Below are positions 58,689 to 62,880 of a stretch of DNA of 63,217 nucleotides, one piece after another. Numbering within the stretch: position 1 is the first letter of the stretch; the number at the start of each line of letters is the position of its first letter. Below the pieces are notes generated by a model that did not search any database, was not told where the DNA came from, and saw nothing but the letters and a program-made list of their open reading frames with translations. The stretch lies in NCBI RefSeq assembly GCF_003334255.1, contig NZ_QOWU01000026.1; one strand, 5' to 3'. The translations under genes were made by a program, and so were the position numbers. The DNA comes from Escherichia coli (GTDB taxonomy: Bacteria > Pseudomonadota > Gammaproteobacteria > Enterobacterales > Enterobacteriaceae).

Positions 58689-58887
58689 AAGCGCGAGTTT
58701 TTACTGTAGAATAGCTGCGGGTGCTTGAGGCTGTCTGCCTCGGGCATGCAGCCGTAAGGCAGACAGAGAAAAGCCCCAGTTAACATTACGCGTCTTGCAG
58801 GACGCTTAACATTAATCTGAGGCCAAATCTATGACTTACAAACTTAGGTTAGCCTCTTACGTGCCGAAAGGCAAGGAGAAGTAGGCT

Positions 58888-59043
58888 ATGAAGCAGCAAA
58901 AGGCGATGTTAATCGCCATGATCGTCATCTGTATTACCGTCGTAGTGATAGCACTGGTAACGAGGAAAGACTTCTGCGAGGTACGAATCCGAACCGGCCA
59001 GACGGAGGTCGCTGTCTTCGTAGACTACGAATCTGAGAAGTAA
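58888..59043 (+). CDS. hok: Hok/Gef-family type I toxin (51 aa)
   Basis: Not in the ORF track. MKQQKAMLIAMIVICITVVVIALVTRKDFCEVRIRTGQTEVAVFVDYESEK is colinear with HokC/Gef. A 17-codon mok-like uORF (58831-58884) ends 3 nt before the hok ATG. The 5' GGTGCTTGAGG (58720-58730) is complementary to the 3' CCTCAACGCACC (59093-59104), like the tac/fbi fold-back. Confidence 0.85.
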   Translation: MKQQKAMLIAMIVICITVVVIALVTRKDFCEVRIRTGQTEVAVFVDYESEK

Positions 59044-59217
59044 GAGACCAGGCAGGGGAGTAATCTCCCGCCACCTCTGATGTGTCTGGCATCCTCAACG
59101 CACCCGTACTTTATTTGTCATATGCTCCGCAAAATGCAGGTTGTCGTTGCAACCAATGCGGTAATTTTTTGTGTGCGAGTGCTCAAAAAACGTTGATTTT
59201 CATAAAAGGATGATTTT

Positions 59218-59325
59218 ATGCTGCCAGACCAGCGACCAGCGACCAGCGACCAGCGACCAGCGACCAGCGACCAGCGACCAGCGACCAGCGACCAGCGACC
59301 AGCAGTAAATCAAGAAAGTCTGTAA
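59218..59325 (+). other. RBS + ATG + repeat-encoded leader: displaced N-terminus of the RM gene
   Basis: AAGGA (59206-59210) lies 7 nt before ATG 59218. The frame runs through the heptamer array and stops at TAA 59323-59325. It is offset from the RM frame by one repeat unit. Confidence 0.7.
59227..59303. repeat. heptanucleotide SSR (GACCAGC) x 11, perfect
   Basis: Counted unit by unit from the sequence. There is no stop codon in any frame of the array. Confidence 0.97.
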
Positions 59326-59393
59326 AATCTGTTGAGCCGGAAATTACCGAACTGGCGAACTCATGGCTTAAATCTTACAGGCTTGATTACAAG

Positions 59394-61355
59394 TTGCAGA
59401 ATGCATCACTTAACGGAGAGATCGATAACGCACTGGACGCTTATTTTTCGAAAAATGGCGGCGCAGGCGGTAATCGTCCCGACGTAAAACTCCTTGTTAA
59501 GGACAAATACGGCAAGCAGTATCCCGTTCTCATCGAGTATAAAGGCTACAAGGACAGGCTTATCAGACTTGGCAGCAACGGTATTATTGAGAACAAAGAT
59601 GCCAGAAAAGAATGGAATTTTAAAAATATTAATGGATACGCGGTGAATGGCGCAGTCCATTATGCCAACGCACTTCTTCAGTTCACCAATTACCCTGATA
59701 TTATTGCTATTGGTATGACCGGCTGGCGCGATGATGGTACAGGCGAACTGCATCATGAAATCGGCGTGTGGTACGTATCAAAGAATAATTTAGGAGCCGG
59801 ACAGAAGGTTGGTGAATTCACCGACTTATCGTTCCTTGCTGACAAAAATGTTGATGGATTTCTCAACAAGATAAAGCTGCTTAATCTTCCTCCCGAAGAA
59901 CTGGAAAAAATCAAGGCCAGCAAAGAGGAAGAGATAGACACGCGACTTTCCCGTCTGAATAACGATATTTACCAGAATGAAAAGGGGCTTGGTGAAAGCG
60001 ATCGTGTTTACCTTGTTGTGGCTACCGTTATTGCAACGTTGGGGATTCCGGGAAAGTTAGCACCGCTGGATAAAAAAGAACTGACCTCTTCAACGGAGGA
60101 GGACTTGCGTGATGGTGATATTATTTTCAGGAAAATAAGGAATTTTTTAAGGCTGAAAGCTGTTCCTGAAACAAAAAGAGAAATGATTTTGCGCTCGTTG
60201 CAAAATACGCTGTGGACTGAAAACATTAACAAACCAGTCAACGGTGAAAGCCAGTTAAAGCGCGTGTTTGTTAAAGTTGTTGATGATCTTGGGGAGTATT
60301 ACAAAATTGGACTGACCACCGATTTTACGGGCAAACTGTTTAATGAGATGTATCGCTGGCTTGGATTTACGCAGGACAAGCTCAATGACGTCGTTCTGAC
60401 ACCACCTTATGTTGCCACATTGCTGGCACGACTCGCCAGAGTAAACAAAGATTCCTATGTGTGGGATTTTGCTACAGGTTCTGCGGGATTGCTTGTGGCT
60501 GCAATGAATGAAATGCTCATTGACGCCAGAGAAAATATTCACTCACCGAACGAACTACAACTTAAGGAAGCGCAAATCAAGGCTGAACAGCTTCTTGGCC
60601 TTGAGGTGTTATCCAGTATTTATATGCTGGCCATCCTGAATATGATTTTGATGGGGGATGGTAGCTCGAATATCCTCAATAAAGACTCGCTGGCCGATTT
60701 TGACGGCAAGTATGGATTTGGGAAAACAGGAGAAAAATTCCCTGCGGACGCATTTATTCTCAATCCTCCGTATTCAGCTAAAGGTAACGGCATGATTTTC
60801 GTGCAGAAGGCGCTGTCGATGATGGATAAAGGCTATGCTGCAGTGATTATCCAGAGTTCAGCTGGCACAGGAAAGGCTACGGAGTACAACAAAAAAATAC
60901 TCAAGGAAAATACCTTGCTGGCAAGCATCAAAATGCCTGCGGATCTGTTTATTGGTAAATCAAGCGTTCAGACGTACATTTACGTTTTTCAGGTAAAAAT
61001 TCCGCATAACGCGAAACAGGCTGTTAAGTTTATCGACTTTTCCAATGACGGCTACGCTCGCTCTAATCGCAAAAAGGCAAGAAACAATCTTGTTGATGCC
61101 GATCGTGCAAAAGAGCGTTATCAGGAGGTTGTGGATCTGGTTCACTTCGGGAAAGGTTGCCTTAATATCTTTACGGAGGATGAATATTTTGAGGGAACAA
61201 TCGATCCTGATAGTGGTGAGGACTGGAATCAGACCAGGCCAGTAGATGCTAGGCCAACGCTGGAGGATTTCAAAAAGACGGTAGGTGATTACCTTGCATG
61301 GGAGGTCTCGCAATTACTGAAAAAACAAGGTGAAAACAATTTTGCGGGAAAGTAA
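59394..61355 (+). CDS. type IIB (BcgI-A-like) restriction-modification subunit: PD-ExK nuclease + gamma-class N6-adenine methyltransferase
   Basis: Nuclease motif GGNRPDVKLLV...YPVLIEYKG (PD..ExK). AdoMet motif VWDFATGSAGLL. Catalytic motif LNPPYSAKG. Coordinates follow the ORF track (TTG start). The frame is actually open from 59214, and the natural start is probably ATG 59218 in a different repeat state. Confidence 0.7.
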   Translation: MQNASLNGEIDNALDAYFSKNGGAGGNRPDVKLLVKDKYGKQYPVLIEYKGYKDRLIRLGSNGIIENKDARKEWNFKNINGYAVNGAVHYANALLQFTNYPDIIAIGMTGWRDDGTGELHHEIGVWYVSKNNLGAGQKVGEFTDLSFLADKNVDGFLNKIKLLNLPPEELEKIKASKEEEIDTRLSRLNNDIYQNEKGLGESDRVYLVVATVIATLGIPGKLAPLDKKELTSSTEEDLRDGDIIFRKIRNFLRLKAVPETKREMILRSLQNTLWTENINKPVNGESQLKRVFVKVVDDLGEYYKIGLTTDFTGKLFNEMYRWLGFTQDKLNDVVLTPPYVATLLARLARVNKDSYVWDFATGSAGLLVAAMNEMLIDARENIHSPNELQLKEAQIKAEQLLGLEVLSSIYMLAILNMILMGDGSSNILNKDSLADFDGKYGFGKTGEKFPADAFILNPPYSAKGNGMIFVQKALSMMDKGYAAVIIQSSAGTGKATEYNKKILKENTLLASIKMPADLFIGKSSVQTYIYVFQVKIPHNAKQAVKFIDFSNDGYARSNRKKARNNLVDADRAKERYQEVVDLVHFGKGCLNIFTEDEYFEGTIDPDSGEDWNQTRPVDARPTLEDFKKTVGDYLAWEVSQLLKKQGENNFAGK

Positions 61356-61414
61356 ATTCCCCGCTCAGCGATAAATTAAGAAGCGTTGAGTGGGGAGAGT
61401 TCAGGATTGGCGAT

Positions 61415-62509
61415 TTGTTCTATGTGAGCACAGGCTCGCTTATCTCCTCAGGAAGATTAAAACCAGGCAAAATCAAACGTGTTTCAGCAAAGAGCGATCA
61501 AAACGGTATCATCGGAGAGTTTGATACCGAGTTTATGGATGATGCAAGGCATTATGAAAATTTTATAAGCGTTAATTTTTTTGGAGATGCTTTTTATCAT
61601 CCTTATTGTGCCAGCGTAGAAATGAAGGTGCATGTTCTTACATTAAAATCAAGTAAGTCCGACTTTAATGCAAAGCGCGGACTGTATGTTGCCAGTATGA
61701 TTAATAAAGCTTTAAAGGGGCGTTTTAATTATGGTCAACAGTTATCGAGTTCCAAACTCAGAGATGGAGAATATTTCATCTCATTACCAGTGAAAAATAA
61801 TGAAATTGACTGGTTTTTTATGGATAATTATATAGAAGAGCTGGAAGCGGCCCATATAGAAGAGCTGGAAGCATACCTGATAGCTGCTGGGCTGAGTGAT
61901 TACCAACTAACGGAAAAAGATTATCTTATCCTGGAACATTTTAAAAATATTGAATTTTCAGGCTTTCCTGTTACTGAGTTATTCTCAGTGTGCAATACAG
62001 GAAACATATTGTCTAGAGACATCATAGAAAATAGTGGGGATGTTCCTTATCTTTGTGCTAGCCGTGATAATAACTCTGTTAGTTCTTATATCGCCTATGA
62101 TGACTCACTCTTGGAAAAAGGGAACTGTATTTTTATTGGTGGTAAGACATTCGTTGTAACTTATCAGGAGCGAGACTTTTTTTCAAACGACAGTCATAAT
62201 TTGCGACTCTATGTTAACAATGAGGATGGAAGGACAAAGTTTGCTTATTTGGGCATTATTTCATGTATTTATAGGTCTATTTCACATAAATATTCATGGG
62301 GGGATAGTGTTAGTAATAGAAAAATTAAGAACGATGTTATTTGGTTGCCAGTGAAAAATAAGTCACCTGACTTTTGTTATATAAATGACCTTATTTCAGT
62401 TGTTCATAAGCTTGTCATTAAAGATGTTGTCCAGTACGCAGAACGCAAAATGAACGCATACAGGCAAGCTATAACAAGTCGCGGTTATGATGATTCTGGT
62501 GTCAGTTAA
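61415..62509 (+). CDS. specificity (S / BcgI-B-like) subunit with two TRDs
   Basis: Two TRD-like halves (..EWGEFRIGDLFYVSTG.. and ..FPVTELFSVCNTG..). Each is followed by a conserved helix (ISLPVKNNEIDWFFMDNYIEELE / IWLPVKNKSPDFCYINDLISVVHKL). Coordinates follow the ORF track (TTG start). The frame is open from 61334 with no ATG. Confidence 0.7.
   Translation: MFYVSTGSLISSGRLKPGKIKRVSAKSDQNGIIGEFDTEFMDDARHYENFISVNFFGDAFYHPYCASVEMKVHVLTLKSSKSDFNAKRGLYVASMINKALKGRFNYGQQLSSSKLRDGEYFISLPVKNNEIDWFFMDNYIEELEAAHIEELEAYLIAAGLSDYQLTEKDYLILEHFKNIEFSGFPVTELFSVCNTGNILSRDIIENSGDVPYLCASRDNNSVSSYIAYDDSLLEKGNCIFIGGKTFVVTYQERDFFSNDSHNLRLYVNNEDGRTKFAYLGIISCIYRSISHKYSWGDSVSNRKIKNDVIWLPVKNKSPDFCYINDLISVVHKLVIKDVVQYAERKMNAYRQAITSRGYDDSGVS
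61831..61878. repeat. 24-bp tandem duplication in the S-subunit central spacer
   Basis: TATAGAAGAGCTGGAAGC occurs at 61831-61848 and again at 61855-61872, encoding IEELEAAH-IEELEAYL. Confidence 0.9.
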
Positions 62510-62880
62510 AAAACATTTTACAATCGTAAAAATCCTCATATCATGATAAGAATGGTTACATTGCCACGCAGCCGAATCCGCCGATGAGCGGGCTTTTTTG
62601 TTGCTGAAAAAGAAAACAACAGGTGGTTAGCAGGGTATCAGTTAATCGGGGAAATTTTTAAATACCTCACAATTCAGCAAGTTGATGATTGTCTGGCTGG
62701 CGGTGAATTTGTTAAAAATCGCAACGCATGGTGAATCCCCCTCAGCGGCGGGGCGGCTGGTGCGGGCTGGCATTTTTAATGTCACAGGCAATGTGAAAGA
62801 CGCGGGTTCGGTGGCACCGGGCTGAACTCACCGGGAGGCACCCGGCACTATGCAGTTAACTGAAACCAGGTAATACTCTC

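Follow-up and report, generated by a model that had tools for sequence, protein, structure and literature searches.

Here we describe a cassette in a 63,217-nucleotide (nt) stretch of Escherichia coli DNA (contig NZ_QOWU01000026.1 of assembly GCF_003334255.1; hereafter the window), in which a hok/sok module adjoins a restriction-modification (RM) system. We regard it as likely that this is a moron cassette combining hok/sok with a BcgI-like Type IIB RM system whose expression involves two recoding steps. The first would take place at a heptanucleotide tract in the 5' coding region of the gene for the combined restriction and modification subunit (hereafter RM) and the second at the end of that gene, where a -1 ribosomal frameshift would join RM to the specificity (S) subunit as an RM~S fusion. 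A preliminary description of the window had assigned the system to the BcgI-like and not to the Type I enzymes, and a PADLOC run that matched REase_MTase_IIG and Specificity_II agrees with this; it had also seen two genes and not a single chain, which is not supported, as S has no start of its own before its conserved N-terminus and the layout is instead that expected of a -1 frameshift.

The RM subunit, the S frame and their junction

The features on which the first part of the argument depends are the following.

59304..61355, plus strand: RM coding sequence, 683 codons after the repeat, with a PD-(D/E)XK nuclease, a helical connector and a gamma-class N6A methyltransferase.
61346..61352, plus strand: -1 slippery heptamer G_GGA_AAG (type X_XXY_YYZ), read from the sequence; the RM stop TAA, 61353-61355, follows directly.
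61352..62509, plus strand: S reading frame, -1 relative to RM, with a VNSPLSDKLRS linker, a first target recognition domain (TRD1), a central helix, TRD2 and a C-terminal helix.
61358..61396, plus strand: RNA hairpin with a 13-bp stem and a 13-nt loop, starting 5 nt beyond the heptamer; putative stimulator of the frameshift.
61832..61883, plus strand: 24-nt repeat, 2.2 copies (IEELEAAH/IEELEAY), found by Tandem Repeats Finder (TRF) in the central conserved helix of S.

Judging from profile matches and conserved motifs, RM and S almost certainly constitute a BcgI-like Type IIB system. RM aligns nearly end to end (residues 10-675) with the PADLOC model REase_MTase_IIG PDLC03616 (E 3e-232), matches Pfam N6_Mtase (E 4e-21) and gives a weak N-terminal match to VRR_NUC, a PD-(D/E)XK family, while in an alignment with 21 homologues P59-D60, E78-x-K80, DFATGSAG and NPPY are all invariant; the fusion of a nuclease to a gamma-class N6A methylase originally proposed for this gene is thus borne out. 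PDLC03616 is the best model, and because the match to a second PADLOC model of 637 positions reaches only E 1e-44, the window RM belongs to a different subfamily from the latter. The S frame matches Pfam Methylase_S twice as well as PADLOC Specificity_II, and has the two-TRD layout familiar from Type I systems that had been recognized from the start. The lengths of 683 amino acids (aa) for RM and 385 aa for S, counted from the junction, are close to the 637 and 341 positions of the PADLOC models matched, which we take as BcgI-like. The features that define this class have been set out for BcgI and for the BsaXI structure (PMC3874165, PMC3592470, PMC11997821): BcgI of Bacillus coagulans and BsaXI, which are (RM)2S enzymes, have in common with the window system an RM subunit made of a PD-(D/E)XK nuclease and a gamma N6A methylase, an S subunit in which the TRDs alternate with conserved regions (TRD1-CR1-TRD2-CR2), and no translocase. 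A Foldseek search with a low-confidence AlphaFold2 model of RM (predicted local distance difference test, pLDDT, 58) recovered HsdM structures and, near full length, the BsaXI RM subunit and BpuSI.

A classical Type I assignment does not fit these data. As had been noted earlier, there is no HsdR-like open reading frame (ORF) or ATP-dependent translocase between the antiterminator gene Q and the window end, nor is any HsdR annotated between the corresponding bounds in the related genomes compared; the methylase protein carries an N-terminal nuclease domain, and RM scores 36 against NCBIfam hsdM, for which the cutoff is 243. The phage PhiR12_3 (GenBank PV340552) is identical to the window except in the repeat, and its record notes a 'restriction enzyme BcgI alpha chain-like protein'. 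Type IIB enzyme activity and an anti-phage function are predicted from sequence. In more distant hosts (loci L043-L122, from Clostridia, Bacteroidota, Neisseria, Pasteurellaceae, Vibrio, Microcystis, Sulfurovum, Spirochaetales and Saccharibacteria) the RM subunit is 62-75% identical across phyla while the TRDs of S differ, which points to unusually strong conservation of RM and to wide horizontal transfer. The Neisseria homologues may be members of the NgoAVIII family.

The beginning of S is what first suggests an unusual mode of expression. The S frame is open from 61334, and its first ATG, GTG or TTG codon is TTG 61415, which lies inside TRD1. Read from 61352, the S frame matches Methylase_S from profile position 2 with 86.7 bits, as against position 24 and 71.4 bits when it is read from TTG 61415, and the PADLOC model PDLC03593 likewise aligns from model position 2. 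Because the profile matches begin at the junction and the first start codon is only TTG 61415, about 21 genuine S residues (..KLRSVEWGEFRIGDLF) precede any start codon, and initiation at TTG 61415 or at GTG 61424, from which RefSeq annotates a free S, would cost 21-24 residues, equivalent to Methylase_S positions 2-23. A leucine codon that falls in the unpaired loop of the hairpin uses six synonymous codons across the homologues, which indicates, at the level of sequence comparison, that the S frame is under protein-level selection upstream of any start codon. The leucine of '..EKL..' in S was considered as a conserved TTG start and rejected, six codons being used at this position and TTA in the window.

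The number of 24-nt (8-aa) repeats in the central helix of S varies as well, with two copies in most genomes, three in SCU-104 and JNEC-KY173, and a 24-nt insertion at the position of window 61829 in loci L007 and L009. By analogy with EcoR124I/II, copy number in the window S could change the spacer length of the recognition site.

At the junction itself RM ends gcG GGA AAG TAA (61344-61355), with S in the -1 frame relative to it. We compared junctions drawn from IMG/VR and from one genome per species, which cover Firmicutes, Bacteroidota, Proteobacteria, Campylobacterota, Cyanobacteria, Spirochaetes and others. An X_XXY_YYZ heptamer is present in 91 of the 93 unique junctions, directly before the RM stop in 83 of them, and takes the form GGGAAAA (47), GGGAAAG (39), AAAAAAG (3) or AAAAAAA (2). 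At the unique junctions analysed S occupies the -1 frame, which opens no more than 0-2 codons ahead of the heptamer in 37 of the 91; 45 of 86 junctions have no ATG, GTG or TTG before a conserved tryptophan, and the others have start-like codons at inconsistent positions. In a gapless alignment of 58 junction sequences (A2), columns 13 and 16, which are synonymous for RM and needed for slippage, are invariant while other third positions vary. Column 13, which ends the codon before glycine, holds G in every sequence, whether that codon specifies Ala, Leu, Pro, Ser, Met or Glu, and the glycine codon itself ends in A throughout (GGA; never GGC, GGT or GGG).

The hairpin downstream is equally distinctive. 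In the window its stability is -23.3 kcal/mol (z -4.69), a value reached by none of 200 shuffles, and in A2 93% of cells are paired, as against 33-47% with the partner slid. Cells with a change on both sides of a pair number 37, compared with 6.7 +/- 3.5 in shuffles (0/500), and one pair alone occurs as UA in 24 sequences, CG in 18 and UG in 13. With a heptamer at the ORF overlap, a covarying hairpin 5 nt downstream and a -1 ORF devoid of a start, the junction has the sequence features of a programmed -1 frameshift, which probably yields RM together with an RM~S fusion; both the shift and its efficiency are predictions. G_GGA_AAG is rated as highly shift-prone in E. coli in a recoding review (PMC5009743). 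A mixture of RM and RM~S is mechanistically sensible because an engineered fusion of the EcoKI methylase and specificity subunits (M-S) works but needs extra free M (PMC3510504), and because the free A subunit of BcgI activates cleavage (PMC3592470).

Several variants of the junction were encountered. A second group of E. coli S alleles (L022-L027, IMG/VR contigs assigned to E. coli or Salmonella-like) has a different S and a different junction, in which A_AAA_AAG is followed by one codon, TAA and a hairpin of its own. Four metagenomic contigs (L126-L129) have one extra G (CTGGGGAAAATAAAT), giving a single ORF ..RLGKINASLNKKL.. that is the predicted trans-frame junction (..LGKINASL..). In AT-rich contigs (L130-L132, ORF P0122; also P0124 and P0149) the C-terminal ~140 aa of RM are fused in frame to a half-S with one TRD and one helix, with no GK junction and with the upstream RM pieces in other frames; these are either decaying copies or a distinct architecture. 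An alternative genetic code for the fragmented RM around the fusion ORFs (L126, L130) was rejected, since the fragments are spread over different frames and each of the three stop codons occurs. Transcriptional slippage requires long homopolymers, and was rejected at the RM/S junction, where the A-run is only 3-4 nt. Homopolymers do occur within or beside an S or RM gene in two homologues from outside E. coli (G10 at ~6644 of L093 and A9 at 4005 of L081), and might be independent phase-variation sites.

An ordinary two-gene operon would account for the same genes by making a separate S through reinitiation at GTA 61352 (ATA or ATG in relatives) or at TTG 61415/GTG 61424, the heptamer and hairpin merely enforcing coupling. 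This alternative, which we consider unlikely, draws on the RefSeq annotation of a free S from GTG 61424, on the translational coupling of EcoKI hsdM and hsdS across a 1-nt overlap (PMC3510504), and on two observations that count against an obligatory fusion. BcgI and BsaXI contain a free S (PMC3592470, PMC11997821), and in 4 of the 91 junctions the RM stop is TGA, so that the sequence ATGA supplies both this stop and an overlapping S-frame ATG; termination-reinitiation is possible there, as near-cognate reinitiation at ATA or GTA may be elsewhere. Against the two-gene operon, no correctly spaced Shine-Dalgarno (SD) sequence serves S, the starts at 61415 and 61424 sacrifice the conserved beginning of S, and the leucine that is sometimes TTG uses its six codons. 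GTA and ATA are moreover very poor initiators. Reinitiation also leaves unexplained the invariant G of A2 column 13 and the invariant GGA, both of which make no difference to the RM protein and are required by tandem slippage alone. Returning to the frameshift, our judgement leans modestly towards the wider proposal that a widespread BcgI-like family, from Firmicutes to Cyanobacteria, makes S only as RM~S through a G_GGA_AAR-stop-hairpin frameshift, to which the E. coli prophages add a contingency tract.

The heptanucleotide tract at the RM start

Two further features lie at the 5' end of the RM gene.

59206..59220, plus strand: SD sequence AAGGA (59206-59210) with ATG 59218, from sequence reading; likely the true RM start.
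59227..59303, plus strand: (GACCAGC)x11 tract in the 5' coding region of RM (TRF, 11.0 copies, 100% matches).

Traced upstream, the RM frame of the window runs without a stop through the tract as far as TGA 59211-59213, and it has no ATG, GTG or TTG before TTG 59394. The conserved protein begins earlier than this codon: the PADLOC profile alignment of RM starts at 59331, and homologues from Neisseria, Providencia and Methylophilaceae begin M..S[IV]EPNIADLANGWLKSY.LDYKLEQ, corresponding to window 59331-59393, so that a start at TTG 59394 would drop about 30 conserved residues. Upstream of the tract ATG 59218 lies 7 nt after AAGGA and is the sole start served by an SD sequence, while ATG 59210, in another frame, abuts AAGGA and has no usable SD spacing. 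The tract encodes (DQRPATS)n in every frame, and the number of copies n decides what is joined to what: n = 0 mod 3 connects ATG 59218 to RM, n = 1 connects ATG 59210, and n = 2 connects neither. With n = 11 in the window, ATG 59218 is out of the RM frame and its ORF stops at 59323-59325; because the 11-copy tract separates ATG 59218 from the conserved RM N-terminus, the window copy is in a frame-OFF state.

Alleles with other copy numbers show what the intact product would look like. E. coli proteins in the database begin MLPDQRPATS(DQRPATS)n.. (MLPDQRPATS in P0004, P0006 and P0009) or MILCCQTSDQRPATS.., the 9-copy loci L021 and L039 read MLPDQRPATS... continuously into the RM protein, and the 3-copy alleles L023 and L040 read MLPDQRPATSDRKSRKSVKSVEP.. 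in frame into RM. A divergent allele (L027) has no hok upstream and a non-repetitive N-terminus, MRSDQRPATSKSRK, which is plausibly the ancestor of the array, the tract having grown inside the coding N-terminus.

In 23 E. coli loci the tract ranges from 9 to 99 copies, with 6 loci in the frame of ATG 59218 (ATG1), 11 in that of ATG 59210 (ATG2) and 6 OFF. It is perfect in 21 of the 23, with apparent read errors in the other two, and it lengthens or shortens in whole steps of 7 nt. Otherwise identical cassettes of the Symbioflor isolates have 83 (G6/7), 99 (G8) and ~93 (G1/2) copies, three O111:H8 strains have 56, 83 and 58, and PhiR12_3 has 83, as does strain G6/7. By frame, G8 belongs to ATG1, G6/7 is OFF, and JNEC-KY177 and UCPROB-001 belong to ATG2. 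No multi-base 5' repeat occurs in 80 homologous loci of other species. A perfect repeat in the 5' coding region that varies by whole units among close isolates and places them in different frames is what characterizes a simple sequence repeat (SSR) contingency gene, and on this comparative evidence the tract very probably acts as a switch of RM expression. The preliminary description had proposed such a switch, with 12 repeats as the ON state; the control of frame by the repeat stands and 12 copies fit the frame count, whereas the small tract of 11 or 12 copies that it envisaged does not, the array reaching 99 in finished genomes. Immediately upstream of the tract (59183-59217) there is also an imperfect 17-nt direct repeat (TCAAAAAACGTTGATTT / TCATAAAAGGATGATTT), whose second copy holds the SD sequence and ATG 59210, and which could be the scar of a duplication or have a regulatory role.

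Taken together, the proposed course of expression would be as follows. Slipped-strand mispairing would alter n, and ribosomes starting at ATG 59218 would reach RM only at n = 0 mod 3. At the last two RM codons some of these ribosomes would slip -1 on G_GGA_AAG, promoted by the adjacent stop and by the hairpin 5 nt downstream, and would enter the S frame, their product being an RM~S fusion of ~1068 aa to which the repeat peptide is added, while the ribosomes that do not slip would terminate and release free RM. RM and RM~S would then assemble into an enzyme of the (RM)2S type, acting on a bipartite site by methylation or cleavage. Whichever coupling model applies, S needs translation of RM, so that a single slipped-strand event would silence R, M and S together.

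The whole could instead be a decaying remnant, with RM out of frame, mok of the neighbouring hok/sok module interrupted and the repeat an unstable minisatellite of no regulatory role. The OFF state of the window copy, the finding of the ATG1 frame in only 6 of 23 loci and an amber codon in mok all suit such an explanation, as does, whatever its relatedness to the present family, a cloned BcgI-like pair from Bibersteinia that was inactive (PMC4996451). We hold a remnant to be very improbable, as among the 21 top-matching genomes listed (H26-H45 together with phage PhiR12_3) RM and S are intact, at least 98% identical and free of any other disruption, the catalytic motifs are invariant, and in-frame short-tract alleles exist; the perfection of the tract in 21 of 23 loci and its whole-unit changes are typical of a contingency locus.

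Other points weigh against the combined picture of a repeat switch and a frameshift. Both are predicted from sequence. Nearly half of the E. coli loci (11 of 23) are in the frame of the poorly placed ATG2, and for RM no promoter of its own was found upstream of ATG 59218 in a consensus scan. The 11 copies (77 nt) of the window may themselves be a collapse of short-read assembly. The count in long-read genomes is 31-99, several contigs from short reads break off within the tract, and three IMG/VR contigs (L018, L019, L025) start within the heptamer array. The hard-wired fusions of L126-L129 have an internal RM deletion and are possibly decaying copies. Searches of PDB sequences with RM, S and the RM profile gave no match even at E<=10, and the AlphaFold2 model of RM, built on a 22-sequence alignment, served for coarse Foldseek matches alone.

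The annotation of related records bears on the same region. In every related record compared RM is annotated from the internal TTG 59394, and a spurious antisense coding sequence (CDS) is placed over the repeat (59200-59313, minus strand, in the window; also in L001-L015, e.g. 3512-4129, minus strand, in L002), labelled 'YXWGXW repeat-containing protein' or, in a note of PhiR12_3, 'EmrB/QacA'. On identical DNA the Prokaryotic Genome Annotation Pipeline sometimes splits S into a partial pseudogene and a short CDS; these splits, seen in some RefSeq genomes, were considered as real frameshifts and rejected, the sequences being identical to the window up to 62569.

The stx slot and the hok/sok module

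The flanks of the RM system and the module that adjoins it comprise the following features.

58263..58688, plus strand: Q antiterminator gene, Pfam PF06530 (Phage_antitermQ) E 1e-47, with the same coordinates as the RefSeq CDS; left flank of the moron slot.
58685..58712, plus strand: sigma-70-like promoter TTGAAA-16-TAGAAT, 10/12 matches in a consensus scan.
58719..58893, plus strand: hok mRNA leader and sok antisense region, Rfam RF01794 (sok), 118 bits (gathering score 59), E 2e-27.
58831..58884, plus strand: mok-like upstream ORF of 17 codons, from its translation and its alignment with mokW of 933W.
58888..59043, plus strand: hok toxin gene, 51 aa, Pfam HOK_GEF E 2.7e-21 and NCBIfam Hok family.
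62577..62601, plus strand: terminator-like hairpin and T-run found by scan directly after S.
62696..62912, plus strand: STnc100-like small RNA element, Rfam RF02076, 149 bits, E 3e-34; right flank of the moron slot, outside the cassette.

On the left NinG-NinH-Q is 89% identical to Shiga toxin (Stx) phages such as Ss-VASD and P13374. On the right the STnc100-like element ends in an intrinsic terminator (62881-62906); a stretch slightly wider than this element has its homologue directly 3' of stxB and 5' of the nanS-like esterase in H-19B and BP-4795, and the sequence right of the element matches the esterase-proximal region of Ss-VASD. Because the Q side and the STnc100/esterase side both match Stx phages, the cassette occupies the stx moron slot of a lambdoid prophage, in the Q-to-lysis interval; Ss-VASD, H-19B and BP-4795 have the order Q, stx1AB, the conserved downstream element in common with the window, esterase, and so carry stx1AB at the very place that the preliminary description had recognized as a stx slot. 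Its view of the cassette as AT-rich also held, the GC content being 0.34-0.45 over 59400-62600 and ~0.50 in the flanks. The right edge of the cassette lies near 62570, the position from which loci L010-L015 diverge from the window. The late terminator that the preliminary description names as a boundary is at best putative; on the plus strand, terminator-like sites were found at 62577-62601 and 62881-62906.

The hok/mok/sok locus reported after Q is likewise supported, by the HOK_GEF and Rfam sok matches: a Hok-family toxin ORF, a sok leader and antisense RNA region and a mok ORF, the components of a type I toxin-antitoxin locus, are all present, with mok shortened. The module is 91% identical to hokW/mokW/sokW of 933W over ~408 nt that span the -10, leader and hok, and the 933W record has sokW at the corresponding position. 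The -10 of the promoter-like site at 58685-58712 and the sequence downstream of it are common to the 933W locus in this alignment, and the site is probably P_hok. In 933W, however, hok lies on the opposite strand near the right genome end (58390-58797 of 61670), far from Q-stx, whereas in the window it follows Q. The two also differ in mok, which in the window is cut by an amber TAG (58882-58884) where 933W has CAG, 3 nt (one codon) before the hok ATG. Translation of hok would then depend on termination-reinitiation from the 17-codon mok ORF, mok coupling being predicted from sequence. Adjoining the RM system, hok/sok may be a prophage stabiliser or an added abortive defence, and a reading of the cassette as a defence and addiction island is plausible.

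This setting gives some encouragement to the view that the cassette is mainly a phasevarion, or serves to protect or methylate phage progeny in lytic growth, more than as a defence of the lysogen, its expression coming chiefly from Q-dependent late transcription as for stx2. The cassette has the stx slot and orientation downstream of Q, no own promoter was found for RM, and phase-variable methyltransferases are known regulators (PMC7383803, PMC5909438). The full conservation of PD..ExK argues for retained restriction, and in a promoter and terminator scan and a phage comparison pR' and tR' for the window Q allele were not located, the sole close phage relative of the 3' end of Q and the following sequence being PhiR12_3. 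Such a role, which we rate as most improbable, would in any case be compatible with the proposed molecular mechanism and differs from it in biological role alone. Both the switching of the tract and the promoter that drives the operon are matters of prediction.

Relation to known systems and implications

The heptamers of the RM/S junctions, G_GGA_AAG and A_AAA_AAG, are those of lambda G/GT and of dnaX and IS911 respectively, although the class of gene differs. In lambda G/GT, dnaX and IS911 a hairpin lies 5-6 nt downstream and two products are made at a fixed ratio from one mRNA. The predicted fusion has the same R~M~S1~S2 architecture as the single-chain enzymes AloI, CjeI, PpiI and TstI (PMC3874165); these are encoded in one continuous ORF, whereas the fusion in the window would come from only a fraction of ribosomes and exist beside free RM. 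The 'Type IMS' fusion of EcoKI, in which a methylase-S chain is active in vivo with free M, offers the mixture that a frameshift would supply (PMC3510504), but it is an artificial Type I construct that depends on HsdR, and the natural EcoKI genes are coupled by a start/stop overlap. Unlike BcgI and BsaXI, which have a free S subunit, the window has an S with no start preceded by a frameshift cassette, and an RM gene with a 5' heptanucleotide array.

This array recalls the SSR phase-variable RM genes (Type III mod, Type I hsdM/hsdS), in which a 5' coding repeat likewise sets the frame and tract length likewise differs among close isolates (PMC5909438, PMC7383803). The window tract differs from known SSR RM genes in its 7-nt unit, its length of up to 99 units (693 bp), its prophage location and its E. 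coli host, and three states could arise, as the two ATGs upstream of it are not in the same frame. The Type IIG gene cj0031 of Campylobacter jejuni is another SSR phase-variable RM gene. E. coli is absent from the main text of a survey of repeat-bearing Type I systems, and literature searches on the repeat sequence, on the names EH111-x of multiple-locus variable-number tandem repeat (VNTR) analysis, on PhiR12/ECOR13 and on BcgI-like systems of E. coli prophages returned nothing on the locus. In open-access text no relevant paper was found that combines frameshifting with restriction-modification, BcgI or Type IIB; an RM frameshift case is mentioned neither in the available part of the recoding review (PMC5009743) nor in Antonov et al. 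2013, the 2025 EcoSal RM review or the BsaXI structure paper. In the open-access literature, then, we found no description of RM recoding or of an E. coli repeat switch, although REBASE notes may differ. What the window appears to hold brings together three familiar elements in one prophage stx slot: an RM system of the BcgI type, a contingency gene governed by an SSR and a -1 frameshift.

For the family as a whole, annotation looks systematically wrong, with the RM start at an internal TTG, S truncated or split and a spurious antisense CDS, and predictions of 'inactive' or 'orphan' systems, together with failures in the separate cloning of RM and S, may stem from such misannotation. The tract is a very discriminating VNTR that is collapsed or broken in short-read assemblies. 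If our reading is true, RM enzymes would be added to the few cellular genes that rely on programmed frameshifting, and the frameshift would fix the RM:S ratio at the ribosome. The rationale would be a hard-wired surplus of RM relative to S, each S being tied to an RM, an arrangement that fits the needs of the engineered EcoKI fusion and the biochemistry of BcgI. For E. coli, including O111:H8 and the probiotic Symbioflor strains, it would mean SSR phase variation of a prophage defence, and with it clonal heterogeneity in the uptake of phages and plasmids and possibly in methylation-dependent gene expression.

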